Shown here in pieces: positions 2,602 to 54,321 of a stretch of 64,000 nt of DNA. The first letter of the stretch is position 1. Every line of letters begins with the position of its first letter. Made by a program: the position numbers and the translations under genes. Location of the stretch: assembly GCA_963667175.2 (NCBI GenBank), contig CAXXXF010000012.1:192001-256000 (forward strand). Reading direction: 5' to 3'. The notes beneath the pieces were generated by a model that saw only the letters and a program-made list of their open reading frames with translations, had not been told where the DNA came from and ran no database searches. Source of the stretch: Candidatus Latescibacterota bacterium. Its GTDB lineage: Bacteria > Latescibacterota > UBA2968 > GCA-2709665.

Positions 2602-4287
2602 TCAGAACAGCCCCACGGTCTGTCCGGCTTCATCGTAGTCGATCGCCTCGGCTGAAGGTTTTCGGGGGAGCCCCGGCATTGTCATGACGTCGCCGGTGTA
2701 CACCACCACGAAACCGGCCCCGGCAGACACCCGCACGTCGCGGATGGGCACGTTGAAGCCTCTCGGTCTGCCCTTCAGTCCCGGATCGGTCGAGAGCGAA
2801 TACTGGGTCTTGGCCATACATACCGGAAACCTTCCGTACCCCGCTTCCTCGAGCTTTCCGAACCGGGCTCTCAGACGTTTGTCCCCCATGATATCGTCGG
2901 CGCCGTAGATTTCCCGGGCCACGATCCTGGCCTTGTCCCACAACCGCAGGCTATCGGGATACAGAAGGTTGAAATCGGCAGGCGCCGTTTCCGCGGCTTC
3001 GACCACCGTTCGAGCAAGCGCTTCGGCGCCGGCCCCTCCCGCGGCCCAGTGTTCCGCAGGAACGATCGGCAGGTCCATGTCGGCGCACCTGTCCCGGATC
3101 AATGCGACCTCACGGGTGGTGTCGGAAAGAAACCGGTTCACGGCGACGACCGCCGGCAGACCGAAGCGCCGGATATTCTCAATATGCTTCCTGAGGTTTA
3201 CGAGCCCTTTCTCCACCGCGGCCGGATCGGGGTCCGCCAGCCTCCTGAGCGACGTCCCTCCATGGTATTTCAGCCCCCGGACGGTTGCCACGAGCACCAC
3301 TACGTCCGGGCGGATGCCGGCCTGCCGGCACTTGATGTTCAGAAATTTCTCCGCGCCGAGGTCCGCGCCGAATCCGGCTTCGGTCACGGTGTATTCCCCC
3401 AGACGCATCGCCAACTTCGTCGCGATCACCGAATTGCATCCGTGCGCGATATTGGCGAACGGACCCCCGTGGACGATCGCCGGGTTGTTCTCGAGCGTCT
3501 GGACCAGATTCGGTTTCAACGCGTCCTTCAACAGCACGGCCATCGCTCCGTGCACATTGAGATCTGCCGCCGTGACCGGTTCGTTGGCCCGTGTGCGCGC
3601 AACGACAATTCGACCCAGCCGCTCACGAAGCTCGTCGAGCGACTCGGACAGGCAGAAGATCGCCATCACTTCGGACGCGACCGTGATCTCAAACCCGGAT
3701 TCTCGAGGAAAGGAATTCCCCGTGCCCCCAAGACCGATGACGATGTCCCGCAACGCCCGGTCGTTCATATCCATGGCGCGCTTCCACAGGATGCGCCGGG
3801 GATCGATATCCAGCCTGTTCCGGTGATGAAGTTGGTTGTCGATTGCCGCGGCCAGCAGATTGTGGGCGACGCCGATGGCATGGATATCGCCCGTAAAGTG
3901 CAGGTTGATGTCCTCCATTGGCGCGACCTGCGAGGCCCCGCCGCCGGCAGCGCCTCCCTTCATGCCGAAACAGGGACCCAGAGAGGGCTCCCGGAGACAC
4001 ACGGCCGCGCGCTTGCCCAGCCGGTTCAGCGCGTCGCACAGACCCACGGTTGTGGTGGTCTTGCCCTCGCCGGAGGGCGTCGGATTGATCGCCGAGACCA
4101 GCACCAGTTTTCCGGTGGGATTTCCGGCCAGGCTGTCGCAGAAATCCAACGAAACCTTGGCCTTGTGCCTGCCATAGACCTCCAGTTGATCTTCCGGAAC
4201 GCCCAGCTTTCGCCCGACCTCGCCGACATGAAGCAAATCGGCCTGCCTCGCGATCTCGATATCCGGCAGTATCCCCTGTTCGCCCAT
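2602..4287 (-). CDS. fhs: Formate--tetrahydrofolate ligase
   Basis: [58 protein letters not shown]. Confidence 0.97.
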
Positions 4288-4296
4288 CGATTCCCT

Positions 4297-5689
4297 TCAG
4301 TTTCCCCGCGCTTCGTCGACTTCCGCCTGAACGAGTTCGTTCGCGTCCGCCGTTTCGTTCTCGATGGTCGCGTGATCCAGACCCGCCAGCTCGATTCGCC
4401 CCGGAACGCGGAGAACGCCCAGCTTCTTGAGGATCGCGCCCACCACGTAACAGGGCAGAAAACCCAGCACGAAAAACATGATGACGGCGCCGAGCGTCTG
4501 ACCCCACGGCGTTATCGGGGCGTATTCGGGATTCGCGCCCGGATACCCCCACAGAACGAATCCCGCGACAATCACGCCGATGACCCCGGCATAGCCATGC
4601 ACCGCCACGGCGCCCACCGCATCGTCGATCCTGAAGCGGCGTTCGACCCAATTGTGCAGCTTGTACATGCAGAACGTGCCGAATGCGCCGATGAGAAGCG
4701 CCTGCATCGGATGATACAGGTCGTTGCCGGCCGACGCCGTGATGATACCGGCCAGTCCGCCCGAGAAGGTCCAGTAAGGATCGCCTTTGGACACGAAATA
4801 CCCCATGATCAATCCGCCGGCGAGAGACATCAGAAAGTTGAAGGTGATGGCGCTGAGCGTCGTGGGTGTCAGGTAAATCGTGGTGGCCGAGAAGAACGAC
4901 CTGCCGTCGGCCGCATCGACGTCCATAATGGGAACGTTGCAGGCCGCGTAGAAGCCCCAGAATCCGGTATAGATCAGAAACAGTCCGATAATGACCAGCC
5001 ACGTGTTCTGCGGCGGGAAATTCCTCGGAGAGCCGTCAGGCCTGAACCTGCCGATGCGCGGCCCGAGGTGATAGAGTATCGCCAGCGCGGAACCGCCGCT
5101 GATCGCGTGGATCACGCCGGACGCGTACGCGTCGTGATAACCCAGCAACTGCACCATCCAGCCGTCCGCGGACCATCCCCACGCCGCATCGATCACCCAG
5201 GTGACCGACCCCACCAGCACCGCAAAAATCCAGAACGCGCCGGATCGGATGCGTTCGATGACCGCCCCCGAAAGAATCGATCCCGCCGTCAACGAAAACA
5301 GAAGAAACGCCGCCCAGAACACGCCGTTCAACCGCGCCCAGAGTGCCGTATCATCCCCGGTCAAGCCCCCGGAGTGCGGCTTTCCCCCCATTATGCGTCC
5401 CCATCAGTTCATTCCACGGCGCCGCCCAGGCGGCTTGTATGAGTCCGCCCGTGATCCCGGGCCCGTTCTGGACCGCAAAGTAGATCCACCACCCGAAGAA
5501 ATAGAACGTGATGGTCACCAGAGGAATCAGCATCGCGTTCTTCATCAGGGTGTGCATCATATTCTTCCGCCTGGAGACGCCGACTTCATACAGACAGAAG
5601 CCGACGTGGATCAGGAACATGAGAACGATGCATATCCAGTAATAGAACTCCGTAAACACGACCGTCAATGCGCTGAGTTCGTTATCCAT
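4297..5689 (-). CDS. amt: Ammonium/methylammonium transporter (Amt family), one frameshift at ~5391
   Basis: ORFs 5351-5689 and 4297-5391 join if one A is removed (CATAATG to CATATG). Motifs GFCLYEVG..RRKN, LGPRIGRF, IDDAVGAVAVHG. Confidence 0.88.
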
Positions 5690-5742: not shown

Positions 5743-6231
5743 TCAGACCTCCGCGGACCCTTCCGCCATCCGGCTATACTTCCCCCGGTAAAACAGCAGC
5801 GGACGACCCACGCCGGCGTCGCCCGCCACAATCTCACCAACGAAAATGTCGTGGTCGCCGGTCCGCAGCACCTCGATCAGCAGACACTCCACGTGGCCCA
5901 GCGCGTCCGCGAAGACGGGCGATCCCGTCCGGCCAGCGGAGGAAGCCACGTTCGAAAAGTCCTTCGGGCCCGGCCTGGCGAACTGTACGGAAAGCGCTTC
6001 CTGATCCTCGTTGAGGATATTCAATGCAAATTGCCGGCTGGCGGTCAGATGGGCGTGCATCTGCGCCCCCTTGTCCACGGCGACCATGACCAGGGGCGGG
6101 TCCAGCGACAGCGAGGTCACGGCATTGGCCGTCATCCCCCGGGACTCGCCTCCCGCAACCGTCGTCACGACGGTTACCCCGGTCGCGAAACAACCCATAA
6201 TCCGCCGTTGTTCCATCGGGTCGAACGCCAT
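5743..6231 (-). CDS. Flavin reductase (HpaC/DIM6/NTAB family)
   Basis: FATGVTVVT, GMTANAVTSLSLDPPLV, GDHDIFVGE, PLLFYRG. Confidence 0.93.
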   Translation of the reverse strand: MAFDPMEQRRIMGCFATGVTVVTTVAGGESRGMTANAVTSLSLDPPLVMVAVDKGAQMHAHLTASRQFALNILNEDQEALSVQFARPGPKDFSNVASSAGRTGSPVFADALGHVECLLIEVLRTGDHDIFVGEIVAGDAGVGRPLLFYRGKYSRMAEGSAEV

Positions 6232-6350
6232 TCCGATACCCTCTCAATGGCCGCGGCGCAGGATTCGGCCTCGTCCGCCGCCGGACGTCCGGACGCTGTG
6301 AACCGGACCGCCGGGATACCCGTTGAAGCGTCCCAGGTTTCGCTTATCGA

Positions 6351-8689
6351 TCAGGACCGGGGCCGGGTCTTCTCCGGATCGTAGAACGGCAACGGCGCCA
6401 CGCGGGCGGGTATGCGCTTCTGATGTCCGTCCAGCCTTCCCACCTCCACGGCCACGCCGACCGCTGCGTACCCGGTCGCCAGACGGCACAGCGCGATATT
6501 CCTGGCCCAGAATGGGTGAGCGGGCGCCGCTGGTAATCACGCCCACGCGGGCCCTTCCGTCATAGACGTCGTCGCCGGTGGCGGCGGGCTCGTTTCCGGA
6601 CAACTCCAGGCCCACGAGCACGCGTTGCGGATGGGACCGCCTTTGTATCAGCGCCTCTTTACCGATGAAATCGTCTTTCTTGCGTTCGAGCGGAACGGTG
6701 AAGCCGATGCCCGCCTCGAACGGATCCGTCTGATCGTCGAACTCGCAGCCGGCGAAAACCAGACCCGCCTCGATCCGAAGCATGTCCAGGGCTTCCAGCC
6801 CCAGTGGGGTCAGGCCATGCGGCTGCCCCGATTCCCATATGGCATCCCAGACTTCGGGCGCATCGTCGGGATGGCACCACACCTCATAGCCCAGTTCGCC
6901 CGTGTAGCCGGTCCTGGAGACCACAACCGCCGCTCCGCTTCCATGGCCGATTCGACCCACCGTGAATCGGAACCAGCCCAATTCGACCAGGGACGGACGC
7001 GACGGAGGCGTCCCAGATGACTTCCTTGAGAATATCCCGGCTTCTCGGGCCCTGGACGGCAAGATTATGGAGTTGGTCCGTGGCGTTTCTGACCCATACC
7101 CGCATCCCGCGGCGACTCGCCTGCTCGCGCAACCACGCCCCGCCGTAGTCGTCTCCGCAGATCCAGCGAAAATTCTCGGGACCCAACCGGAACAGGGTCC
7201 CGTCGTCCAGCATGCCGCCGGTTTCATAGCACATGGCGGAATACGTCACCTGGCCCGTCGAAATCCTGCGAACGTCTCGCGTGAGCGTGAGCTGCAGCAA
7301 CGCCTCGGCGTCCGGCCCCAGGACCTCGAACTTGCGAAGCGCGGACAGGTCCATCACCGCCGCCGCCTCACGACAGGCGTAATACTCCTCGACGGCGCCC
7401 TTCCCCGTAAAGGAGTACGGCAGCCAGAAACCGCGGTATTCCTCGAAATTTCGAGTCAGGGCCGAGGTTCGCCGGTGAAAGGCCGTCTCCCTCGTCAACC
7501 TCGGTTCGGCGTCTGCCGTCATCCGGTGCGCAATTCCTCTGGAAAAACCGGTACCGTTCGGGGTAGACGCGGACCTGGATCTCTGTTGGCTCCCAACCGT
7601 TGGCCGGATCGATATCGTCCGGGCACGCGGACGACAGGCAGACCAGGTCCGTCAGGGCTTTCAGCAGCACGTAGTCCCCCGGACGAGACCATGGTTCGTC
7701 CATGACAAGGACGTTATTCAGGTCGATTCTCGTATTGTAGAAAAAGTTCACCGCGGGCCAGCCGCGGCGGGACTGAATCGTATACGGGGCCAGTGCCGCG
7801 TTGAAGTTGTCCGTACAGTTGACGTGGCCCGGGTAACCCATATCCTCGTAATATTTCGCGGTGCACGCAAGCGCAAACGTATCGTGCCGACCTACCGTAT
7901 CCCGAACCACTTCGACCAGCGGCTGCATATCCTGGTCGTAAAACTTCGAGAAAAGTCCCGGACCGGGATAAGCGGCGCCCATGAGCGTCCGCGTCGTGGG
8001 TCGCGTCCAGACCCCGCTCGATGCCCCGTTGCAACCGCCTGGCGTCGAACGCCAGAAAATCGGAACACTGCCGGCCGGCGGCGTCGATCACCTGGATGAA
8101 CTCTCCGGCCTTTACCTCGTATGCGATCGCCGACGCCTTCTCCACCTCCAGATCCAGGCGCATGTCGCCAAGAGGCGACGGAAGCGGGGGACGTTCCGGC
8201 GCCTCAACGCGCGAACGCCTGACCACCACGTCGAGGTCCGTGGGAGGGTCCTGGGCATCCACCCTCATCGGCGCCCCCGGCGCCGCAATCAGGCAGACGG
8301 CGTCGTCTGCGGCGTGGAAACACGCTTCGGCGCCGGCTTCCGTTTCTCCGCCGAAGACCTGCACCGCTCTGGCGCGGGGCAAGGTCAACGCCGCGCCGCC
8401 GAAGCGCCGCGTCGGCCGCCTGCGCGCTTTCGTCGCCCCGCCTGAGCGCGGCCGCGAAACCTTCCATCGCGCCATCCGCCCGGAGTCCCAGCCTGGACGG
8501 ATCGGCATTGCCGTCCGGACCGAACACACCCAGTTCGCATCGCTGGCGCCCCTCCACGTCCACAACCGCAAGCCGGTCGCCAGGCGCCAGCGCCAGGGCG
8601 ATCGCCCCGCCGCCCGGCACCCGATAGCGCTCCCTGCCCGGCGTCCACCTCAGCAGTCCCGTCCCCGTCATTTGGACGTCCGCAGGCAT
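6351..8689 (-). CDS. tdm: Trimethylamine N-oxide demethylase (DUF1989 + GcvT domains), five frameshifts
   Basis: Pieces in ORFs 8204-8692, 7714-8571, 7368-7982, 6884-7522 and 6244-7227 join into one protein. GRQCSDF, HDTFALAC..GHVNC, CPDDIDPANGW (Cys-rich DUF1989), then GcvT motifs SRTGYTGELGYE and LRIEAGL. Ends PFYDPEKTRPRS*. Confidence 0.85.
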
Positions 8690-10089
8690 CACCCTTCTTC
8701 GGTTTCAGCCAGAAGCTGGCGCGCGAGTTCCTTCTTCTTCTCGCCGTCCATTTTCTTGAGTTCGTTCCTCAACAACCGCTCGTTCACCGACTGGTTCCAG
8801 TAGTCCAGGGAGTCGAATCCCAGCAGCACGCTCTTGCCCACAAACTGGCGGAGGACCTCGTTCGTGGGGCCCATCACCCAGCCGGCCTTGCCGTCGCGCA
8901 GGTACCGTTCAATCCCAAGGTCGGGTTTGTACCCCGTCCCGCCGCAGGCATGGAGCATCTTGTCGGAGACGTTTGCCACGTTCTTCGCCGCGGTGAACTT
9001 TACCTGCCACATCCAGTGCAGCACGTCCGCCCTGGGCATGCAGGAGAAGGTCCCGGTGGATGGACCAGTCGCACCGATTCGTGACGTCGTCCATCGCGCG
9101 GGCCATCAGGTAGACAAAGGACCGGGAGGCGTTGGTATCGATCACGGCTTCGCCCACGTAGTCCTGGATTGTCGGGTAGTCCGCCACCCGCATGCCCACG
9201 TCAGCGTGCCGCCTGGCGGTGGTATGCCGCCTGGCGATGTCGATCATCCCCAGAGAAATGCCGTTCCAGCAGGCCGATGAGCACAACAGGAAGAACGGAT
9301 CCACCGTCTCGTCGTTCGAATTCGCCCCGTCACCCACCGGCCCCACCAGCCTGCTCTCGGGCATCGTGACGTTGTCGACCTCCAGCGTGCCGGACTGATT
9401 CCCGCGCAGACCCAGGCCGTCCCACAGCGACGGTTCCGCTTTCACCTCGTCGGCCATAACGAGAAAGCAGGAAAGATTCGAATAGTCACCCGCGAAATCC
9501 GGACTCGTCGTCTGCACGATGTACCAATCGGCGAAGCCCGCGGACGTCGTCCAGGACGCCTTCTTCCGCACCTTCCAGCCGCCTTCCACCCGCTCGGCCC
9601 CGGAAGAAACGGGGTAGGTACCAGAAATGAGAGCCCGTCTCCGGGTCCGAATAGGATAACGTGCCCACCAGCACGTCGCTGTCGAGGCGTTTCATGAGGC
9701 CCCTGAAGCGTCGCATTGTCGTGCGCCCGAAACATGGCGGCGGCCACGGCCCCGACGTGCATGGTGTAACACATTGCGGTACTGGCGCACCCGTAACGCG
9801 CGATCGTCTCCACCACCATCGCCGTACACGTGTGGTCTTCTCCCAGACCTCCCCATTCGCGGGGCACGTTCAGTCCCAGCAGACCCAGCGAAGCCAGCGC
9901 TTCGAAGTTTTCCCGTGGAAACACGAGGTTGCGATCGCTTTCTACCGCGTTGTCCCGCAGCGTTGTCCGGCAGAGGTCGATCAGTTTCTCCTGGAGCGCC
10001 CGCTGCCCGGGCGTCAATACCCATTGGGGATCCCAATCGTAGTCCAGACCCCAGAACGCCTCCGGGCCCCACGTCTTCGTATTGCTCAT
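8689..10089 (-). CDS. Acyl-CoA dehydrogenase-fold flavoprotein (possible monooxygenase), three frameshifts
   Basis: ORFs 9442-10089, 9486-9716, 8909-9589 and 8689-9039 join. VPREWGGLG, STAMCYTMH, SYSDPETGS, WDGLGLRGNQSG, CGGTGY..IERYLRD. Stop overlaps the tdm start (TGATG). Confidence 0.85.
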
Positions 10090-10104
10090 TGCGCCTCCGG
10101 GTTT

Positions 10105-10537
10105 TCAGGTTGCCGGGTTTGAGACTGCGCCATGCGCGTCGTCGTCAAGATTCATGCCGTAGGCATCTCCAAGTTCCATCATCGGATGATTATCGGACAT
10201 CTGAAACTTGACGAGCAGCTCCCGTGCGATCATATCACGCTCCTGCTGGTTGTCGGGCAGCGCCATGTCTACGGGAACCAGCACCCAGCCGTTGATGTTC
10301 CGGTCGAATACCGCCGGCTTTCCGTCTTCGTATCCCATATGCACGTCTTCCAACCAGTTCAGGTCCCGCCACCCCATAACCTCGATGTATCGCTTCAGGA
10401 ACGGAGTCAGGAGCCCGTAGTCCGGCGGCAGGTTCACGTCGTAACCGGTATCCGATGTGCTGGCCGATTTCCTTCTCGCGGTCCGAGTCCAGCCCCGTGG
10501 ACTCGAGGTAGTAGTTCACGTCTTTGGCTTCGTCCAT
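10105..10537 (-). CDS. Small acidic protein of unknown function (~143 aa), one frameshift at ~10443
   Basis: RBS AGGAG before ATG 10537. MDEAKDVNYYLE..GQHIGYR continues as YDVNLPPDY..WLEDVHMGYE..FDRNINGW after removing one T. Confidence 0.7.
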
Positions 10538-10621: not shown

Positions 10622-11992
10622 TCAATACCTGTTCATCTCGGGATGTCCGACCGTATAGCGGGTACCTGCCAGGGGCACCTCCGCCATGGCGGAGGCTTCC
10701 ATGGTGAGCGCGGCAAGATCCTCCGGCTCCAGGGAATGAACGTCGGTCTTGCCGCAGGCCCTGGCGAACATCTGGCATTCGATCGCCAGGGTATGCAGGA
10801 AGTTATACACCCGCTCGGCCGCGTCATCCGGGTCCAGCCGGCTGCGCAGGTCCGGATCCTGGGTGGCCACGCCCACGGGGCAGAGTCCGGTATGGCAGTG
10901 ATAGCATTGCCCCGCCGGAACGCCTACCGTGCCTTCGTAATCCGCCTCGGGGATATCCTTGTTGCAATTCAGCGCCACCATCGCCGCCGTACCGATGGCC
11001 ACCGCGTCGGCGCCGAGCGCAAGCGCCTTGGCCACGTCGGCCCCGTTGCGAATCCCGCCCGCGTAGACGAGCGTAATCGCTCCGGTCTTGCCCACGTCGT
11101 CCAGCGCTTTTCTGGCCTGCCGGATGGCCGCGATCCCCGGCACGCCCGTCTCCTCGGTGGCCAGATGGGGCCCCGCCCCCGTCGAGCCCTCCATCCCGTC
11201 CATATAGATGCTGTCGGGCCCCGTCTTCGCTGCCATCCGCACGTCGTCGTAAACACGGGCCGCGCCGAGCTTCAATTGAATCGGCACCTGCCAATTGGTC
11301 GCCTCCCGGATCTCTTCGATCTTCAGGGCAAGATCGTCGGGGCCCAGCCAGTCCGGGTGCCTCGCCGGCGAACGCTGGTCGATCCCCGCGGGCAGCGAAC
11401 GCATTTCAGCCACCTGGTCGGTTACTTTCTGGCCCATCAGGTGGCCGCCGAGCCCCACCTTGCATCCCTGGCCGATAAAAAACTCCACGCCGTCGGCGAG
11501 GCGCATGTGGTGCGGGTTGAACCCGTAGCGGGACTGGATGCACTGGTAGAGCCACTTCTCGGAATACCGGCGCTCGTCGGGCAGCATGCCCCCTTCTCCC
11601 GAGCAGGTGGCGGTGCCCGCCATCGTGGCCCCTCTTGCCAGCGCCACTTTCGCCTCGTAGGATAACGCGCCGAAGCTCATGCCCGTAACGTAGACGGGAA
11701 TATCCAGCACGAGCGGCCGTTCGGCCCCGGGCCCGATCACCGTCCGGGTCTCACATTTCTCACGGTATCCCTCGATCACGAACCTTGTGAGCGTGCCGGG
11801 AAGAAACGTCAGGTCGTCCCACGATGGAATCTGCTTGAAAAGCGCCATGCCCCGCATTCGGTACCGCCCCAGATTCGCCTTGACGTGGATGTCGTCGATC
11901 ACGTGGGGCGGAAACATGAAATTCCTGCCCAGAACCTGGGGGTTCCGGTCATGCCGGCCATTTCCGGAAACGTCATTTCCGGGTGTATCCAT
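10622..11992 (-). CDS. mgsC: FMN-binding glutamate synthase-like protein (N-methylglutamate synthase subunit C / GlxD)
   Basis: GMSFGALS, CSGEGG, GQGCKVGLGGHL, GGIRNGADVAKALALGAD, CYHCHTGLCPVGVATQDP. Start moved to ATG 11992 (RBS AGGAG). Confidence 0.88.
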   Translation of the reverse strand: MDTPGNDVSGNGRHDRNPQVLGRNFMFPPHVIDDIHVKANLGRYRMRGMALFKQIPSWDDLTFLPGTLTRFVIEGYREKCETRTVIGPGAERPLVLDIPVYVTGMSFGALSYEAKVALARGATMAGTATCSGEGGMLPDERRYSEKWLYQCIQSRYGFNPHHMRLADGVEFFIGQGCKVGLGGHLMGQKVTDQVAEMRSLPAGIDQRSPARHPDWLGPDDLALKIEEIREATNWQVPIQLKLGAARVYDDVRMAAKTGPDSIYMDGMEGSTGAGPHLATEETGVPGIAAIRQARKALDDVGKTGAITLVYAGGIRNGADVAKALALGADAVAIGTAAMVALNCNKDIPEADYEGTVGVPAGQCYHCHTGLCPVGVATQDPDLRSRLDPDDAAERVYNFLHTLAIECQMFARACGKTDVHSLEPEDLAALTMEASAMAEVPLAGTRYTVGHPEMNRY

Positions 11993-12092
11993 AACCCGTT
12001 TCTCCTGGCGTCGGCCCGGAATGCTCGCGGTTCCGGGAGCGACGCGCGTTGAAGCGTTCGATTGTCTTTTTATGGAAGGGAGTAAACGGTAG

Positions 12093-12120
12093 ATAATACG
12101 GAAGGGTCGCGCGCTGTCAA
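12093..12120 (-). promoter_or_regulatory. Sigma-70-like promoter of the methylamine operon
   Basis: TTGACA-16 bp-TATTAT about 100 bp upstream of mgsC. Confidence 0.55.
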
Positions 12121-12179
12121 AGGAGGAAACGTCGTGGGGTTCAACGGGTTCAGCCCCACCCACAACGCTGACCTGAAGC

Positions 12180-23645: not shown

Positions 23646-25400
23646 TCAACCCTCGCCGTGGCTGCGGGACGGGGTTCCGGGCGCCGACATCCGCCGCCGC
23701 GTATTCCCGGTTTCCGTCTCGTTGACCGACAGGGTCCCGCGATCCATCACCACGCCGTACAGTTCCCGCGCCTGGCTCACCGAAACTCTTCCGTTCTTTA
23801 CGTCGCGCGCGACCGCCCCTGGGTCCCGCTCCATCGGATTTCCCCATCCCCCGCCGCCCGCCTGCCGGTGGTAGATCCGCTCTCCGGCCCCCATCGTCGT
23901 CGAAATCATCGTCGGCAACTCCTCGCCGCCGTCGCTTCCGTAAAGCACGTTGGTCGATCCCGTCGCCGGTTTTCCGCCGTACAGGCCATACGGCAGGTGG
24001 TCTCTTCGATCGGACCGGATTGCCAGGTGCGCTTCTCCCGAAAGCAGGGTCCACTCCCGCTCGATCGCCATTCCGCCCCGAAAACGTCCGGCGCCCCCGC
24101 TGTCGCAAACCAGTCCGTACCGGTCGATTCTCACCGGGTATTCACACTCCGCCTGTTCAACGGGAATATTGCTGGCCACGTTCGCCGGATTGCACAGCCC
24201 GTCGTTTCCGTCCCGGTCCGGCCGCGCGCCCCAGGTCCCGGAGAGCAGTTCATAGTAAACATAGTGCGACCGGTCCTGCCGCTGGCCGCCGATGATGACC
24301 AGCGAATTGCCCCCCTCGCCGGCGGCCGGCACGCGGTCGGGCAGCAGCCCGGACAGAGCGCCGAACACCACGTCCGCCATCCGGAAGCCCGTCACGCCGC
24401 GCATCGACGACGCGCCCGGCATGCGCACGTTCACCAGCGTGCCCTCGGGCGCGATGACCTCCAGCGGACGGAACATCCCTTCCGTATTCGGAATCTCCTC
24501 CCGCATTACGGCGCGCACGCAAAGGGCCACGACGGCCGCGGTAAACGAGAGCGTACTGTTGACAGCGCCCCGAACCTGCGGGTCCGTCCCCGTGAAATCG
24601 GCGGTGAGCGAGTCTCCCCGCACGGTCACGGTCACGCGGATCCGCACCCGGGGGCCGCCCACTCCGTCGCTGTCCAGGAAATCGGTAAAGGTATGGGATC
24701 CATCGGGCCAGGACGCAATCTCCGACCGTACCAGGCGTTCCGTATAGTCGATCAGATCCTGCGCGCACGCCAGAAACGTCCCGGATCCGTACCGCTCGAT
24801 CAGCGCTTGCACTGCCCGTTCCCCCATATGGCAGGCCGCCAGCTGCGCCCTGATGTCCCCAATCGTCATCTGGGGCACCCGCACGTTCGCCCGGATCAAT
24901 GAAAATATGGACTCGTCGGGCTCACCCTGGCGATAGAGCTTCAGCCACGGAATGCGAAACCCTTCCTGAAAGATCTCCGTGTTGTCGCACGCGGAACTGC
25001 CGGGCAGGCGCCCTCCGAGGTCCAGGTGGTGCGCCGTACTCACCGCAAACGCCACCCGCTCACCGTTCCAGAAGATCGGTTGTACGATAAAGACGTCCGG
25101 AATGTGCATCCCGCCGTCGAACGGATCGTTCAGGATAAACACGTCGCCGGGGTCGATGTTATCCTCGAACCGCTCGAGCAGCGCATTCAGAGCATACGGG
25201 ACCGATCCCAGATGCAGTGGTATGGTCACGCCCTGCGCGATCATCTGACCATCCGCGTTGCACAGCGACGTGGAGTAGTCCAGGCAGTCGCGCACGATGG
25301 TGGAATAGGCCGTGCGATACAGCGCGGCGCTCATTTCGTCGGCGGCCGCAGCCAGTGCATTCTGCATGATCTCACGCGTGATTGGGTCTATTTCCGTCAT
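23646..25400 (-). CDS. hyuB: Hydantoinase B/oxoprolinase family protein
   Basis: NDPFDGGMHIPD, HHLDLGG, IFQEG, DSGGAGRFRGG, GGGGWGNP. Confidence 0.9.
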   Translation of the reverse strand: MTEIDPITREIMQNALAAAADEMSAALYRTAYSTIVRDCLDYSTSLCNADGQMIAQGVTIPLHLGSVPYALNALLERFEDNIDPGDVFILNDPFDGGMHIPDVFIVQPIFWNGERVAFAVSTAHHLDLGGRLPGSSACDNTEIFQEGFRIPWLKLYRQGEPDESIFSLIRANVRVPQMTIGDIRAQLAACHMGERAVQALIERYGSGTFLACAQDLIDYTERLVRSEIASWPDGSHTFTDFLDSDGVGGPRVRIRVTVTVRGDSLTADFTGTDPQVRGAVNSTLSFTAAVVALCVRAVMREEIPNTEGMFRPLEVIAPEGTLVNVRMPGASSMRGVTGFRMADVVFGALSGLLPDRVPAAGEGGNSLVIIGGQRQDRSHYVYYELLSGTWGARPDRDGNDGLCNPANVASNIPVEQAECEYPVRIDRYGLVCDSGGAGRFRGGMAIEREWTLLSGEAHLAIRSDRRDHLPYGLYGGKPATGSTNVLYGSDGGEELPTMISTTMGAGERIYHRQAGGGGWGNPMERDPGAVARDVKNGRVSVSQARELYGVVMDRGTLSVNETETGNTRRRMSAPGTPSRSHGEG

Positions 25401-25432
25401 CGTGCCATCGACCTTCCAGGCCGCGCCGCGGC

Positions 25433-27532
25433 TTATCCCCGCGCCCCGGCGGCTTCCAGAATCAAGTAATCCTGCCGATTCCGATACGCCCGCATTTCCG
25501 GCGGCACCACGATTGTGGAGTCGTATTCATCGATCAGGAGGGGCCCGACCCGCGGCGCAGTCAGATCCGCTCGTTCGATCACGGGCGTTTCCACGGTTCC
25601 CCACGCCTTTCCGTAATACGCCCGACGTGCTGAGGTGCCCGGCCCGCTGCGCCGCAGGGCGCGCATTCGGCCACTTGCGTCGCGGCGGGCGGTTCTGCCG
25701 ATCAGACGAACGGCAACCACCTCGACCGGATTGTCCGGGTCCGACGAATGTCCGTACATCTGCCGATGGGCGCGTTCAAACGCTCCGCGCAGACGACCTA
25801 TAGCTGCGTCCGTCGCCGGGGATTCCGGCGCCGGAATCCGGATTTCCGAAGCCTGGCCCCTGAAGCGCACGTCGACACTGTGTCCAAGCGCCACCTGCTC
25901 AGCGGAATACCCCTCCGCCCGGAACCGGGCAAGCATCTTTCGTTTCAGGTCCGACTGGATTTCGCCCAACGCTTCCGCGTTCAGTGCGTCGCCCGAAAGC
26001 AAACAGCTGTAAACTTCGTGATGTTCCACGCCGGAGAGCAGAAGTCCCAGCGCGCTGAACAACCCGGGCAACGGAGGGACAATGACTTTGGGGCTCAGAA
26101 GTTCACTGGCCAGCCCGGCTGCGTGAATCGGACCGGACCCGCCGAAGGCGATCAGGGCGAACGCCCTGGGATCACGGCCCCGCTCCGTGGACACGGACCG
26201 AAGCGCCCGCATACACCGGGCATTGGCAATCCTGTGTATGCCCTCGGCCGCTTCGAGCAGGCCCAGGCCCAGTGGAGCCGCGATCCGATCGTGAACGATC
26301 CTTCTCGCGTTCTCGGGGTCGATGGAGACTTCTCCGTCTGCCAGTTCCCCAGGCCGTATATACCCCAACACGACGTTGGCGTCGGTAACGGTGGGCTCGT
26401 CTCCGCCCCGGCCGTAACAGACGGGGCCCGGTTCGGCGCCCGCACTTCTGGGTCCGACCCGCAATCCGCCCGCTCCATCCAGCCAGGCCACGCTGCCACC
26501 ACCGGATCCCACCTCCGCGATATCGATGCTGGGCGCGCGGATCAGCTCCCCTCCTCCGCCCACCAACCTGTTTCCCGCCGACACGGATGCGCCGACTTCG
26601 TATTCCGGGCTGTAGGAAATCTCGCCATTCTCGATGATGGACGCCTTGGCAGTGGTGCCTCCCATATCGAACGTGATGAGGTCGTCGATTTCCAGTTGCT
26701 CGCCGGCGGAACGGGCGGCGAAAACCCCGGCCGCGGGTCCCGACTCGAGCACGTACACCGGACGGTGCGCCGCGTCGGCTTCAGGCGTCAGTCCCCCGGC
26801 GGACTGCATGATCAGCACCGGCGTCAGAATGCCCTGCTCACTCAGCCCATCCCGCATCGCCGTGAGATAACGCTGCATCACCGGACGCACGTACGCATTC
26901 AGCACCGTGGTTGCCGTACGTTCGTACTCCCGCCGCTCCGGCAGAATCTCCGTGGAGAGAGACACCGGTACGCCGGGACACGCGCCTTCTAGACACCGGC
27001 CAATGGCGTGTTCATGCTCGGGATACGCGTACGAGTGAAGCGTGCAGACCGCAATCGACTCCACCCGTTCCTTCTCCAGCGCTGAGATGACGGCCTTGAG
27101 GTCCGCCTCGTCCAGGGGCGCCAGAACGTCACCATTCGCGGCAAAGCGTTCGGTCACCTCGAACCTGAGATACCGGGCCACCAGCGGTTCAGGCTTGTCG
27201 AAGAACAGATCGTACATCTGCGGCGCCCTGATGCGCCTCAGTTCCAGAACGTCCCGGAATCCGCGCGTGGTGATCAGCGCGGTCCTGGCGCCCCGCCGCT
27301 CCAGGACCGCATTCGTCGCCACGGTGGTCCCGTGGGAGACGTCACCGATCTCTCCGCCCGGGATGCCGGAATCTCCCAGCAGGCGGGCGATGGCGTCCAG
27401 TACGGCCTGCTCGAAGTCCGGCGGCGTCGAGGGGATCTTGTGGGTCCATAGATTCCCCTCGCCGTCCATGAGGATGACGTCCGTGAAGGTTCCGCCAACG
27501 TCAGCGCCGATTCGATATGAAGTCCGATTCAT
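25433..27532 (-). CDS. hyuA: Hydantoinase A/oxoprolinase family protein
   Basis: DVGGTFTD, HGTTVATN, ESGPAAG, DMGGTT, SAGAEPGPVCYGRGG, FGGSGPIH. Confidence 0.92.
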   Translation of the reverse strand: MNRTSYRIGADVGGTFTDVILMDGEGNLWTHKIPSTPPDFEQAVLDAIARLLGDSGIPGGEIGDVSHGTTVATNAVLERRGARTALITTRGFRDVLELRRIRAPQMYDLFFDKPEPLVARYLRFEVTERFAANGDVLAPLDEADLKAVISALEKERVESIAVCTLHSYAYPEHEHAIGRCLEGACPGVPVSLSTEILPERREYERTATTVLNAYVRPVMQRYLTAMRDGLSEQGILTPVLIMQSAGGLTPEADAAHRPVYVLESGPAAGVFAARSAGEQLEIDDLITFDMGGTTAKASIIENGEISYSPEYEVGASVSAGNRLVGGGGELIRAPSIDIAEVGSGGGSVAWLDGAGGLRVGPRSAGAEPGPVCYGRGGDEPTVTDANVVLGYIRPGELADGEVSIDPENARRIVHDRIAAPLGLGLLEAAEGIHRIANARCMRALRSVSTERGRDPRAFALIAFGGSGPIHAAGLASELLSPKVIVPPLPGLFSALGLLLSGVEHHEVYSCLLSGDALNAEALGEIQSDLKRKMLARFRAEGYSAEQVALGHSVDVRFRGQASEIRIPAPESPATDAAIGRLRGAFERAHRQMYGHSSDPDNPVEVVAVRLIGRTARRDASGRMRALRRSGPGTSARRAYYGKAWGTVETPVIERADLTAPRVGPLLIDEYDSTIVVPPEMRAYRNRQDYLILEAAGARG

Positions 27533-29196
27533 TGGGAAATGACCGGGAGACGCAGAAAGGAGGCATATTGGCCGCTGTGATGGATCGTCTGAAGGGCGAC
27601 TCTCATTTCGTCGTCCAGGCCGGGGATATTGCCGGTGTTGAGATTCCGGTCGAAACGGGGAAAGTTGCTGCTGGAGACCTCCAGCCTGATCCGATGGCCG
27701 GCCCTGAACAAATTGCTCGTCTCCCAGAGTACGATCCGGTATTCCACCACCGCCCCCGGACGGATCAGACTCGGCCTGCGAAAGGATTCTCGGTAACGGG
27801 CCCGCACGATGCCCTCCGTAACGTGGATCGCCGCGCCATCGGGATACACGTCGACCAGGGTGGCCGTAAAGTCCGTATCGCGCGCATCCGATGCGGCGAA
27901 CAGGGTGAGTTCCACGGGGCCGGTCACCTCCACGTCCGACGTCAGGGCTTCCGTTGTGTAAAACAGCACGTCCTCGCGGGTTTCCAAGCCTCGCCGGTCC
28001 CGGGGACCCGTGTTGGCGGGGAACAAGCTCTGCCCGCCCACGGTGGTCACCGGATCCTCCGGATCGTAGTCGAACCGGTCCGCGGGCTCGTCCCCCGGCG
28101 CTTCACGGCTGAGCGTTCCATCGCCGAGCGAAGTATTGGCGCGGCCGCCGCTGTGGAGATAGTATGCCGTGTATTTCGTTCGCGCCAGCGGCCACTCGTT
28201 TTCCCACCGCCAGGAATTCCGGCCCATCACGAAAATCCTGACGGGCGGCTCCTCGTCGATCCCCGTATCGATTCCGCGCAGCCGCTGGTCGTACCAGCGC
28301 AGGTGTTCGCCGGGAATATCCACCGCGGCACTCGATCCGAAATCGATATCCCCGTACGGCGCCGCGCTCCCGATCTGCGAGTGTGTCCACGGGCCGACCA
28401 ACAGGCGGGTCAACGATCGGGTCCGGGCGTCTGCCGGCTCCGTTCGCCAGCCGCGAAAACACTTGAAGCTCTCGTGGACGAGATTGTCGTACCAGCCCGT
28501 GACGAAATAGGCCGGCGTATTCACTTCCCGGTACCGGCCTTTCATGCTGATTGACGACCAGAATTCGTCGAATTCGCCGTGCCGGACCACCTCTCTGAAA
28601 AAAGGCCGTTCCGCGATGCCGTCCATTGCGGAGATCAGCGGCAGCCGGCGGTAGATGCGTTCCCAGTCCAGCAGGTCCCGCGGCGCGTTCTGGTTGGTCC
28701 GTCCTCCGAGCCAGATCCAGTTCATCGCATTCTGCAGCTGAAGGAGACCATTGTAGCGCAGGTGCCCGTAGTTGTCCTCCTGGTTTGCGATGGGCATCAG
28801 CCCCTTTACGAAGGGGCTCCGGAACGGGGCCGGTAGAATCTGGGTGAAGCCCGGATAGGAAATCCCGAACATCCCGATATTGCCGTCGCACCATGCCTGC
28901 GCCCCGATCCATTGTTGCGTGTCGTAGCCGTCGCGAGCTTCGTCCGCATAGGCCCGCCACTCCCCTTCCGATTCGTACCGCCCCCTGCTGTCCACCATGA
29001 CCACCGCGTAGCCGGACCTCGCGAACCGGACCGCCCAGTCCACGTATCTGGGATGCTCGGTACTGTAGGGCGACCGGATCAGCAGAACGGGAAAGCGCAC
29101 GCCGTGCGCGGGCCGATATGCCGCGCCGTAGAGCGTCACCCCGTCTCTCATCGGGATGCTCAGGTCCAGTTGAATTCGCACACCCGCATCAGACAT
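27529..29196 (-). CDS. CocE/NonD family serine hydrolase
   Basis: IPMRDGV, RSPY, GISYPG nucleophile, GWYD, GPWTH, SSSNFPRFDRN. Confidence 0.93.
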   Translation of the reverse strand: MSDAGVRIQLDLSIPMRDGVTLYGAAYRPAHGVRFPVLLIRSPYSTEHPRYVDWAVRFARSGYAVVMVDSRGRYESEGEWRAYADEARDGYDTQQWIGAQAWCDGNIGMFGISYPGFTQILPAPFRSPFVKGLMPIANQEDNYGHLRYNGLLQLQNAMNWIWLGGRTNQNAPRDLLDWERIYRRLPLISAMDGIAERPFFREVVRHGEFDEFWSSISMKGRYREVNTPAYFVTGWYDNLVHESFKCFRGWRTEPADARTRSLTRLLVGPWTHSQIGSAAPYGDIDFGSSAAVDIPGEHLRWYDQRLRGIDTGIDEEPPVRIFVMGRNSWRWENEWPLARTKYTAYYLHSGGRANTSLGDGTLSREAPGDEPADRFDYDPEDPVTTVGGQSLFPANTGPRDRRGLETREDVLFYTTEALTSDVEVTGPVELTLFAASDARDTDFTATLVDVYPDGAAIHVTEGIVRARYRESFRRPSLIRPGAVVEYRIVLWETSNLFRAGHRIRLEVSSSNFPRFDRNLNTGNIPGLDDEMRVALQTIHHSGQYASFLRLPVISQ

Positions 29197-29256
29197 TGGC
29201 TGTACCCCGTTCGAAGCGTTACCATGTGTTGCCGTGAGAAACCGGATCGGTCCCCG

Positions 29257-30627
29257 TTACGTCGCCAATCTGTCCAGAACGTTGCGGGTAATCCCGGCCA
29301 CCACGCTCTCATCGCGGTACAACCCATGAGCCCATTCGATGGTGGCGGCGTTGAAGACCGTGCCCTCGAACTCCGTTTCATTGATGGCCACCGTGCCGTA
29401 GCACGGCGCAACGCCCTCTTTCCCCCCTTCCTTCGCCAGACGGTGACCGTCGGGGGTCATGCAATCCGCAAGCGCCACGATCCTGTACTCCGGCGATACC
29501 CCGTCGGCGCCCGTGTACACGGGCCGGCCGTCATTGAATTTCAGGTCCGCCGCGTCCGCCTCCACGCCGACGATCGAGTCCTCCCGTCCGAATTCGTCCC
29601 CTTCGGCCAACCCCGTCCCCTCATACACCCAGTGTTCCGGGTCGCACACGCGGTAGTACCCCCAGTCCTCGGTCGTGGGCGCCAGGAAAACGTTCGGATC
29701 TGACGTCTTCGTGTGGACAAACGACGTGTAGAACACGCCGATCGTGCGCTGGCGAAGGTCGTCCAGAAAGCAGAGAAACGACGTTTCCGGACGCTCGGGC
29801 GTGGGATGATCGTGATAGTAGGGCTTTGCGCAATAAATCTGCCTGCCGTGGTTTCTCAACTCGATTTCCTGGCAGAAACAGTTCCCGCCGAACAGGATGA
29901 GATTGCCTCCATTCCGAACGAAACGCTGTAACTGTTCGCACTCGTTTCTGCTGTTGTATTCGTCGTGACAGAAGCGCACGTTCGCCCGGTAGTCTTTCAG
30001 TATATCGGGTTCCGCGTCGTGGTCGCCGTTCACACAATAATCGGCGCCGTACCCCTCCGCATCCAGCCACGAGGTGAAAAACTGGTCCCAGATGTAGAAG
30101 TTGCCCAGGCATTCCATCTGAAGGGGGCGTTCGAAACTCAGCAGCTTGGCGTGCTGCCGGTCGGTTGATATATAATCGTAAAAGCACTTGCCGCCCACGT
30201 TGTTGTAGGCCTGGTAGGTATTGGTCGCAACCGTCAGCAACATCGGAGATTCCGGTGACCTGGGGCGTACCACGAAGAAAATCTCGCGCAGCCCCTGTCC
30301 GGTCGGGAAGGTCGCAATATAGATTCCGCTCTTCCAGGTGTCCGGAATGACGAAGGACGCCGCCGGCGCCCACCCGTAGCCATCCCGGTAGCCCTGTTCC
30401 GGAACCTCCTGAAGCGCGCCCCGCAGCCCCTCTATAGTCTTGACCAGTTCCCGTTTGGCGCCTTCCCGGAAGATGAATATCTCGTAGTACGACCGTGAGT
30501 TCGAAACGTGAAACGTGATTTCCTCGCCCGGCCTCACGCTCTGCAGGTCGGCGTAGCCGCCTTCCATCAACTTCCAGTTGATCGTTGCGTCCCACTCATG
30601 ATGCGCCCAGATGTGTTCTCTCTTCAT
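29257..30627 (-). CDS. N,N-dimethylformamidase large-subunit-like protein
   Basis: WKSGIY, NTYQAYN..GGK, SFERP, HDEY, GGN..FGGN, HWVYEGTGL..GD.FG, GVEAD, VFNAATIEW, ITRNVL. Confidence 0.78.
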   Translation of the reverse strand: MKREHIWAHHEWDATINWKLMEGGYADLQSVRPGEEITFHVSNSRSYYEIFIFREGAKRELVKTIEGLRGALQEVPEQGYRDGYGWAPAASFVIPDTWKSGIYIATFPTGQGLREIFFVVRPRSPESPMLLTVATNTYQAYNNVGGKCFYDYISTDRQHAKLLSFERPLQMECLGNFYIWDQFFTSWLDAEGYGADYCVNGDHDAEPDILKDYRANVRFCHDEYNSRNECEQLQRFVRNGGNLILFGGNCFCQEIELRNHGRQIYCAKPYYHDHPTPERPETSFLCFLDDLRQRTIGVFYTSFVHTKTSDPNVFLAPTTEDWGYYRVCDPEHWVYEGTGLAEGDEFGREDSIVGVEADAADLKFNDGRPVYTGADGVSPEYRIVALADCMTPDGHRLAKEGGKEGVAPCYGTVAINETEFEGTVFNAATIEWAHGLYRDESVVAGITRNVLDRLAT

Positions 30628-53209: not shown

Positions 53210-54271
53210 CTATCGCCGTACAAACGGCAGTTCGACGACCTCGGCGCGGCCTCCGCCGTCTACGGACAGCATCCGGCCGGGCCGTTCGAATCCCCGACGG
53301 ACGGAGGCCAGCGAAATCACCCGCCGCAGGGCCGGGGAGTCCAGGCCGCTTGTTATCCATCCGACCTGTCTTTCGCCGTCTCGAAGCGGTGTTTCAGCCG
53401 GCGGAACGGTTTCCGTGTCCACAAGGAGGCCAACCAGATACCGCCTGGGCTTGCCCAGATTGTGCATTTTGGCGATCGTTTCCTGTCCGATAAAACATCC
53501 TTTGGCGAAATCGACGGCGTGATGGAGGCCCGCTTCCAGCGGCACGACCCGCTCGTCCACGTCCACTCCGTAGCGCGGAATGCCGGATTCTATACGCATT
53601 GCTTCCAGTGCCCGGACACCCACGGGGCGCGCGCCGGCGGAAGCCAACGCGCTCCAGAGGCGGCGGGCCGGGACCGCCTCTGTCCGGAGATCGTAGCCGG
53701 GCTCTCCGGTATAGGCGCGCGCGGTCACGGACACATCCGCGCCTTCCAGGGTCCGGAAAACGGTATGGCAATCCGCAAGATCGACGGGCGCCTCGCCCAG
53801 GACACGCGCGATCAAGGCGCGGGAGCGCGGCCCGTGTACGCCCAACGTGGCCTGTGCCCCGGTTACGTCCTTGATGTCGACGTCGTCCGCGACCAGGTAT
53901 TTGTCCAGGGACGCCATCAGTTTTTCCTGCAATCCCGGCTCTGTCTCAAGCAGGAACCCATCCGCTCGGTGATACACCCATACGTCCGTCAGGGTCTGTC
54001 CCCGTGGCGTGGTCATCGTCGCATAATTGCCGGCCCCGGATTCCAGCCCCTCGACCGTATTGCTCAGCATCCCGTGCAAAAACCGCGCGCGATCCGAGCC
54101 GGTAACCAGCAGGTTGCCCCGGTTGCTCCGATCGACCAGACCCGCGGCCTCTCGAACAGAAGCGTATTCGGACGCGGGATCGCCGTAATGCGCAGCCGCC
54201 TCCATGCCGTCGATTGGTTCAAATACCGCGCCAGCCGCCAGTTTGGCTTCCCGCAACGATGGAACAGTCAT
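53210..54271 (-). CDS. YgfZ/GcvT-like folate-binding protein
   Basis: G.DRARFL, RIESGIP, KGCFIGQE signature. Confidence 0.88.
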   Translation of the reverse strand: MTVPSLREAKLAAGAVFEPIDGMEAAAHYGDPASEYASVREAAGLVDRSNRGNLLVTGSDRARFLHGMLSNTVEGLESGAGNYATMTTPRGQTLTDVWVYHRADGFLLETEPGLQEKLMASLDKYLVADDVDIKDVTGAQATLGVHGPRSRALIARVLGEAPVDLADCHTVFRTLEGADVSVTARAYTGEPGYDLRTEAVPARRLWSALASAGARPVGVRALEAMRIESGIPRYGVDVDERVVPLEAGLHHAVDFAKGCFIGQETIAKMHNLGKPRRYLVGLLVDTETVPPAETPLRDGERQVGWITSGLDSPALRRVISLASVRRGFERPGRMLSVDGGGRAEVVELPFVRR

Positions 54272-54321
54272 TGAGCGACCTCCCGAATGAACGCCGAACA
54301 CACACTGTTACGACCTGCTGA

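Follow-up and report, generated by a model that had tools for sequence, protein, structure and literature searches.

Surveys of the turnover of trimethylamine (TMA) and its N-oxide (TMAO), whether in soils, in the oceans or in animal hosts, use tmm as their marker gene. Its product Tmm is a single-component class B enzyme of the flavin-containing monooxygenase (FMO) type that uses NADPH and FAD, and TMAO is the substrate of the demethylase Tdm. N- and S-oxygenation are the known chemistry of another class of flavoenzymes, the group D two-component monooxygenases, in which we include DszC, SfnB, HsaA, C2-HpaH, KijD3 and isobutylamine N-hydroxylase; these have the acyl-CoA dehydrogenase (ACAD) fold, lack the dehydrogenase base and depend on a separately encoded short-chain flavin reductase. 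Here we describe a locus in a 64,000-nucleotide stretch of DNA (the window, G000:C12:192001-256000) from a metagenome-assembled genome (MAG) of Latescibacterota, in which a gene for an ACAD-fold flavoprotein (the ACAD gene) is followed by tdm and by a flavin reductase gene (flr). We propose, with a probability of roughly 0.55, that the ACAD-fold protein and the flavin reductase constitute a putative two-component flavin-dependent TMA N-oxygenase that is not homologous to Tmm and that feeds Tdm.

In the proposed route the ACAD-fold protein, supplied with free reduced flavin by its partner and using O2, would N-oxygenate TMA to TMAO, and the co-translated Tdm would then split TMAO into dimethylamine (DMA) and a C1 unit. 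The enzyme would be a non-homologous stand-in for the FMO-type Tmm. The ACAD gene is found together with a reductase gene and tdm in several phyla, mostly in genomes without Tmm, and therefore it probably does the job of Tmm.

An ACAD fold without the dehydrogenase base

Within the window the reading frame at 8689-9105 contains the motif GWVMGPTNE. An intact orthologue from a relative (L016:10115-11506) matches all three ACAD Pfam domains (N, M and C), and these are its only domains. The best match among solved structures is an ACAD from Thermobifida (8i4p, E = 5e-31). On alignment VMGPT lies opposite IYEGT(NQ), with glycine in place of the catalytic glutamate, and the alternative base position in helix G, used by enzymes of the IVD type, is occupied by phenylalanine. 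This Gly and Phe are invariant across the family, and M404 and P406 are retained even in relatives at 25-35% identity. The dehydrogenase base has been lost. A preliminary description of the window, made from its letters, had reported the gene order, the TGATG overlap of the ACAD stop with the tdm start and the replacement of IYEGT by WVMGPTNE, and we see all of these.

The protein reaches no equivalog cut-off. Its best NCBIfam match is to Rv1679/FadE16 (NF049984), with 218 bits against a cut-off of 600, and all other curated ACAD equivalogs score 104 bits or less. The models for group D oxygenases give 63 bits for DszC (cut-off 850), 69 for SfnB (431), 63 for HsaA (450) and 53 for HpaH (650), so that by sequence it falls outside the DszC, SfnB, HsaA and HpaH-C2 subfamilies. 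A model calculated with AlphaFold2 from an alignment of 49 sequences has the ACAD fold, with a predicted local distance difference test score (pLDDT) of 92.6; an earlier model from 12 near-identical sequences had a pLDDT of 51 and was discarded. The top Foldseek matches of the later model are ACAD-fold chains with template modelling scores of 0.84-0.92 to the target, and comprise dehydrogenases together with 5z8t, which is entitled 'Flavin-containing monooxygenase'. The predicted structure confirms the ACAD fold, and the fold does not decide the activity.

As judged from its sequences the ACAD-like protein belongs to a discrete and highly conserved family. Its members are 72-95% identical across MAGs of Latescibacterota, Acidobacteriota, Alphaproteobacteria and cyanobacteria and others labelled Verrucomicrobiota. 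Against a library of sequences clustered at 50% identity, the family itself scores 825 bits, the next matches 564, 510, 419 and 330 bits, and those after them at the level of ordinary ACADs. Records of homologues at 74-95% identity are labelled Latescibacteria, Acidobacteria, Alpha- and Gammaproteobacteria and Udaeobacter, and in all of them the annotation is acyl-CoA dehydrogenase only. A search of the literature (listings, abstracts and passages) gave no description of this family with tdm and no assay, expression data or knockout for it, and the listing gave no functional paper for Rv1679 and nothing for 5Z8T or 5GJ7. This is an uncharacterised enzyme family of a mechanistic kind that is already known.

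Linkage to tdm and to a flavin reductase

A scan covering 185,579 species, with a single genome each, gave 300 stretches encoding relatives of the ACAD-like protein, of which the best 80 were fetched. Tdm was called in these loci at an identity of at least 45% and a coverage of at least 40%. Fifty of the 80 loci were scored at the level of the genome (the carriers); in the window's genus eight near-duplicates were omitted, as were 22 loci on short contigs.

The tdm gene lies inside the fetched flanks of 53 of the 80 loci, and of 35 of the 40 that have at least 8 kb on both sides. The intact orthologue of the window's tdm scores 1244 bits on NF053776 (TmaoDeMthMsil, cut-off 1100), with the DUF1989 plus GcvT architecture. 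At the genome level linkage is near-obligate, since Tdm is encoded in 49 of the 50 carriers and passes the curated TMAO-demethylase cut-off in 42. Within the window's order (41 genomes) the ACAD gene is confined to three genera, g1 (14/14), g2 (2/2) and g4 (1/1), and Tdm is confined to the same three (13/14, 2/2 and 1/1). The single miss in g1 is a genome with a short ACAD locus, probably cut by the end of a contig; the window's own tdm, being in pieces, falls below the threshold.

At least three architectures recur among the 80 loci. Latescibacterota have the order ACAD-tdm-flr, and most acidobacteriotal loci have ACAD-tdm with no reductase in the flanks. Many Alphaproteobacteria have flr-ACAD convergent with tdm, and the order in Xanthobacter and Labrys is ACAD-flr-tdm. 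The ACAD family has been widely spread by horizontal transfer together with tdm. The preliminary description would have given up its proposal had homologues proved unlinked to methylamine genes; the ACAD gene is tied to tdm far beyond the window.

Some individual loci deserve mention in their own right. One alphaproteobacterial genome (G456) has two copies each of the ACAD-like gene and Tdm, on two contigs. A MAG of Leptolyngbyaceae (L092:1119-8917) has a compact methylated-amine cluster in a cyanobacterial bin, in which an ACAD-like gene, a copper amine oxidase gene, a tdm-like gene that is shorter at its N-terminal end and amt follow one another. One alphaproteobacterial locus type (L059 and L062, also L054 and L060) has a divergent gene like that of serine hydroxymethyltransferase between the ACAD gene and tdm, with a fatty-acid desaturase and an aromatic amino-acid lyase homologue upstream and sulfite-assimilation genes downstream of tdm. 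The contig of L062 is labelled Udaeobacter and is syntenic with an alphaproteobacterial contig, which may reflect a binning error or transfer.

The reductase partner is conserved. A reductase of PF01613 is present in 51 of the 80 loci, adjoining the ACAD gene in 27, tdm in 22 and lying elsewhere in two. The window's reductase matches the NCBIfam reductase components of the HpaH, HsaAB and StyAB two-component monooxygenases, all below the cut-off. A dedicated NAD(P)H:flavin reductase is a trait of group D, and it is found here. The nearest relatives outside the family, P0242 (52% identity, 770 aa), P0249 and P0254 (36%, 882 aa), carry FAD_binding_6 and NAD_binding_1 domains fused at the C-terminus. 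Fusion to a reductase of the FNR type indicates that this clade draws its electrons from NAD(P)H, which fits an oxygenase and not a dehydrogenase linked to electron-transfer flavoprotein (ETF). The claim that the operon has no ETF or CoA-handling gene holds for its eight genes by Pfam; ETF, CoA-ligase and β-oxidation genes are likewise absent from one locus of the alphaproteobacterial type and from the Labrys locus, the rest of the genomes not having been searched for ETF.

Exchange with Tmm and not with Dmm

Neither Tmm nor the Dmm alpha subunit is found in the window, as had been claimed, or in the whole genome, which is 95% complete, and a tblastn search of that genome gave no match to DmmA, DmmB, DmmC, Tmm or the TMAO transporter TmoP. 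Among the 50 carriers, six have a canonical Tmm (NF058570) over the cut-off and seven have the Dmm alpha subunit (PF11927); in the window's order none of the 41 genomes has such a Tmm. Only Labrys has both, and 38 of the 50 have neither. The preliminary description had held that canonical tmm and dmm elsewhere in the genome would speak against its proposal. That is not the situation in this genome, and for tmm it is the situation in the six other carriers.

As a control we used 401 evenly drawn Alphaproteobacteria. Tdm is encoded in 37 of these, nine of which have the ACAD gene (seven newly detected and two already scored). In Fisher tests that ignore kinship, Tmm is present in 1/9 of the Tdm-bearing genomes with the ACAD gene compared with 19/28 of those without it (plus one broken copy; p = 0.005), and Dmm in 2/9 compared with 7/28 (E < 1e-40) or 10/28 with weak matches included (p = 0.69-1.0). 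We also calculated a Tdm tree with FastTree from 82 sequences, 36 from the alphaproteobacterial sample and 46 from carrier loci; matches with a coverage below 90%, those interrupted by stops and two partial copies were excluded. Carrier and Tmm-bearing genomes interleave on this tree, and its well-supported branches force at least eight switches. Of the five independent contrasts available, an average of 4.7 show Tmm changing in the direction opposite to the ACAD gene and 0.0 in the same direction; Dmm is unchanged in 4.7. The ACAD gene exchanges with tmm. In the co-occurrence tests proposed in the preliminary description the gene is linked to tdm and anticorrelated with tmm, but not with dmm. 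The two activities it had offered, TMA N-oxygenation and DMA N-demethylation, fare differently. The former is favoured by the near-universal Tdm of the carriers together with the anticorrelation with tmm, whereas the latter finds no signal in the co-occurrence with Dmm and clashes with the operons described next.

In Labrys okinawensis a divergent tmoP is followed by ACAD-flr-tdm-dmmD-dmmA-dmmB-dmmC. The same ACAD-flr-tdm-dmmDABC operon is found in Xanthobacter sp. VTT E-85241, in the genome of which no Tmm and no TmoP were found. In the Methylocella cluster tmm adjoins tdm, and the ACAD pair, which heads the tdm-dmm cluster in Labrys, would therefore occupy the place of tmm. TmoP is present in 25 of the 50 carriers and in none of those from Latescibacterota, Acidobacteriota or cyanobacteria (an ABC-type TMAO transporter was not searched for). 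In the 25 carriers lacking TmoP the TMAO would therefore need to be made inside the cell.

Alternative functions

A number of observations weigh against a TMA N-oxygenase. The profile scores place the protein nearer to true ACADs and the uncharacterised Rv1679 family than to the known group D oxygenases (218 compared with 53-69 bits), and the fold search does not separate dehydrogenases from oxygenases. The earlier claim of an oxygenase is supported by the lost base, the reductase partner and the tie to tdm; by profile scores the protein is nearer to true ACADs than to the DszC/KijD3 type. The independent-pairs test has five pairs only, and its median sign-test p value of 0.0625 is the best that five pairs allow; the sampled genomes are related and many are MAGs, which the Fisher tests do not take into account. 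The Tmm of the six carriers is bona fide, and in Virgifigura deserti and three Dongiaceae MAGs tmm adjoins tdm a few kb from the ACAD gene. Since the two coexist, the displacement is neither absolute nor strictly exclusive. Lastly, the clusters of the 38 carriers without Tmm and Dmm often contain methylamine-utilisation genes, and the conversion of DMA to monomethylamine in these genomes is not explained by a TMA N-oxygenase. The coexistence with Tmm and the scarcity of Dmm keep alive both a DMA-oxidising role and an enzyme that N-oxygenates TMA and DMA in turn. In the first of these the protein would be a non-homologous DMA monooxygenase or demethylase replacing DmmDABC, and would turn the DMA made by Tdm into monomethylamine. 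The lack of the Dmm alpha subunit in 43 of the 50 carriers is consistent with such a role, as is the window's genome, with Tdm, the whole gmaS/mgs/mgd route and no Dmm found. The clusters pair the ACAD gene with users of methylamine (mgs and gmaS, or the copper amine oxidase of L092), and four carriers have tmm adjoining tdm and no Dmm. Yet in Labrys and Xanthobacter the ACAD gene and dmmDABC belong to a single operon, the frequency of Dmm is alike with and without the ACAD gene, and Dmm did not change in the independent contrasts. A flavin hydroperoxide, moreover, attacks nitrogen and not a methyl C-H bond, and we regard this role as doubtful. In the second, which we think unlikely, the ACAD-fold protein and reductase would N-oxygenate both TMA to TMAO and DMA to N,N-dimethylhydroxylamine, and Tdm would cleave both products, giving DMA and then monomethylamine, so that TMA would be converted to methylamine without Tmm or Dmm. 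This would explain why 38 of the 50 carriers lack both despite the methylamine-utilisation genes of their clusters. A 'DMA bottleneck' in marine bacteria is reported in the abstract of PMC5520151, and iterative demethylation, if true, would close it.

The remaining readings move the activity away from methylated amines or from oxygenation. Group D enzymes of the ACAD fold oxidise sulfur compounds of the dimethyl sulfide pathway, according to passages of PMC13352529, and one could imagine a broader heteroatom oxygenase acting on dimethyl sulfide, dimethyl sulfoxide or another tertiary amine, linked to tdm either through common regulation or because these Tdm homologues act on a different N-oxide. 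The weak NCBIfam matches to SfnB and DszC point the same way, as do the sulfite reductase, CysG and TauE genes downstream of tdm in one alphaproteobacterial locus type. Such sulfur genes are found in that locus type only, however, and the exchange is specifically with Tmm; with Tdm in 49 of the 50 carriers, 42 of them over the curated TMAO-demethylase cut-off, we find this rather improbable. Very unlikely in our judgement is an accessory to Tdm, for example one that keeps its Fe(II) site reduced or clears a toxic by-product. The near-obligate co-occurrence and the translational coupling would be expected of such a protein, but 28 of the 37 Tdm-bearing Alphaproteobacteria manage without the ACAD gene, and its presence goes with the absence of Tmm, a pattern not expected of an accessory. 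Least probable of all is an ordinary acyl-CoA or acyl-carrier dehydrogenase, a desulfinase or a reductase without a part in methylamine metabolism, lying beside tdm by accident. While all three ACAD Pfam domains are present and the best solved and NCBIfam relatives are ACADs, the catalytic glutamate is missing, no equivalog cut-off is reached, the operons examined have no ETF or CoA genes, and the linkage to tdm and a flavin reductase extends over at least five phylum labels.

The operon and its frameshifts

The host genome is a MAG of 5.5 Mb in 18 contigs, and the public runs that hold this stretch are mostly sponge metagenomes. The features of the operon are collected in Table 1. The stop of the ACAD gene overlaps the tdm start in GGGTGATGCC (TGATG). 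The arrangement of genes is kept in 10 of the 10 relatives fetched and the linkage of the ACAD gene to tdm recurs across phyla; it is therefore not due to chance.

Table 1. Genes of the operon, in the order of transcription, with positions numbered from the first nucleotide of the window.
Feature	Position	Strand	Evidence and remarks
mgsC-like FMN subunit of N-methylglutamate synthase	10622-12163	minus	PF01645, E = 8.7e-90; likely true start near 11992; orthologue 456 aa
Small conserved hypothetical open reading frame	10105-10537	minus	no Pfam or NCBIfam family; one assembly frameshift near 10443; intact orthologue 145 aa
ACAD-fold flavoprotein, proposed oxygenase component	8689-10089, three frames	minus	Pfam Acyl-CoA_dh_N/M/1 on pieces; frameshifts near 9700, 9613-9616 and 9047; intact orthologue 464 aa
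tdm, TMAO demethylase (DUF1989 + GcvT)	~6351-8693, five frames	minus	Pfam on pieces; frameshifts near 8374, 7998, 7543, 7012 and 6504
NAD(P)H:flavin reductase of HpaC/StyB/HsaB type, proposed reductase component	5743-6231	minus	PF01613, E = 8.7e-42; 162 aa, intact
amt, Amt-family ammonium/methylammonium transporter	4297-5689, two frames	minus	PF00909 on both pieces; one frameshift near 5391; intact orthologue 463 aa
fhs, formate-tetrahydrofolate ligase	2602-4287	minus	PF01268, E = 1.7e-258
Glutamine-synthetase-family (GS-like) gene	864-2198	minus	PF00120

Several of these genes are broken in the window. Comparison with two relatives at about 92% DNA identity shows ten insertions of a single base and one duplication of 4 bp, all between 5391 and 10443. 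Almost every one lengthens a homopolymer, they are spaced at roughly 400-750 bp, and they are confined to about 5 kb; fhs, the GS-like gene and mgsC contain no such changes, and long open reading frames elsewhere in the window are intact. At each of the ten places at least two of four public runs, and up to all four, have contigs that lack the extra bases, among them contigs free of any substitution, the exceptions that retain the extra base being run X2 at 7998 and run X1 at 8374. In the relative G009 all of the genes are intact, encoding the small protein (145 aa), the ACAD-fold protein (464-479 aa), Tdm (778 aa), the reductase (162 aa) and Amt (463 aa). Because the independent contigs lack the extra bases and the genes of relatives are intact, we conclude that the frameshifts are assembly errors. 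The same evidence rules out pseudogenes or gene decay. The cluster of changes looks like a local artefact of consensus or polishing in a long-read assembly. We therefore used intact orthologues from relatives for the analysis of proteins, and left the sequence of the window unrepaired.

The window's genome contains gmaS, two sets of mgsABC and mgd, mostly on contig C11. In the window's genus the methylamine cluster is split, with mgd, gmaS, mgsA, mgsB and a second mgsABC set at G000:C11:70757-82494 and the matching mgsC in the window; in two sister genera it is contiguous (L036). The GS-like gene of the window had been called gmaS. Its family is as stated, but the closer counterpart of the relatives' gmaS is on C11: in L036 a GS-like gene of 510 aa precedes mgsA, and it is 86% identical to the C11 gene and only 30% to that at 864-2198 of the window.

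Two candidates for a part in DMA oxidation were dropped. An open reading frame of the DAO family follows flr in two sister genera and was considered as a DMA oxidase, but elsewhere it travels with gmaS and mgs. The mgsC-like gene was considered as a Dmm subunit; Dmm consists of DmmA, a PDR-type reductase and the PF11927 protein, and in relatives mgsA and mgsB lie upstream of this gene.

Elsewhere in the window, the minus strand at 23646-30627 encodes hydantoinases B and A (of the oxoprolinase or N-methylhydantoinase type), an S15 peptidase and a protein resembling the beta subunit of N,N-dimethylformamidase (PF20254), which could be a further source of DMA. A stand-alone aminomethyltransferase of the GcvT family (363 aa) is encoded at 53210-54301, also on the minus strand, and adjoins a TonB-dependent receptor.

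A small protein beside mgsC

The preliminary description had suggested that the small protein, given there as 143 aa, might be part of the system. We find no Pfam or NCBIfam match for it, either with the pieces in the window or with the intact orthologue. The family has a length of about 130-145 aa and 7994 homologues at E ≤ 1e-5, and the few names given among the matches listed are all 'hypothetical protein'. Twenty-five of the 80 ACAD loci encode it; in 20 of them it adjoins mgsC, and in only 15 is it near the ACAD gene. Among 35 Tdm-bearing Alphaproteobacteria 25 encode it, 18 of these lacking the ACAD gene, and in 25/25 of these further loci (L120-L144) it lies directly downstream of mgsC. 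This adjacency, and the occurrence in genomes without the ACAD gene, rule out a third subunit of the oxygenase. The small protein is an unnamed companion of N-methylglutamate synthase that stands outside the oxygenase, and it may be an unrecognised fourth gene of that cluster.

Significance and comparison with known systems

If the ACAD-fold protein and its reductase oxidise TMA, surveys based on tmm overlook several groups of methylated-amine oxidisers: Dongiaceae together with further soil Alphaproteobacteria, Acidobacteriota, Latescibacterota associated with sponges, and certain MAGs that carry the label Udaeobacter or cyanobacteria. The pair would in addition be a clear-cut example of non-orthologous displacement within a conserved pathway cluster, and would give the ACAD fold a new physiological role. 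Carriers in culture include Xanthobacter sp. VTT E-85241 and E-85242, Labrys okinawensis DSM 18385, Dongia deserti and Virgifigura deserti.

In its proposed function this system resembles Tmm. The reaction would be the same, as would the place in the pathway and in the cluster beside tdm, tmoP and dmm, and the two replace one another on the Tdm tree. The proteins have no homology, however, and the ACAD-fold protein needs a separate reductase where Tmm is complete in one component. DmmDABC, or heme-dependent oxidative N-demethylase, belongs to the same pathway and shares an operon with the ACAD gene in Labrys and Xanthobacter. Its proteins (an alpha subunit of PAS-heme type, a PDR-type reductase and a GcvT subunit) are unrelated, and its distribution is not complementary to that of the ACAD gene. 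The Rv1679/FadE16 family provides the best profile match, and both have MxPT in place of YEGT; the cut-off of 600 is not reached, however, and the methylamine context is specific to the ACAD-like family. With the group D monooxygenases the ACAD-like protein has in common the fold, the absence of the dehydrogenase base and the separate flavin reductase. It differs from them in keeping flavin-site motifs like those of ACADs, in having about 60 extra residues and in being closer to the true ACADs, and we found no characterised member among its own family.

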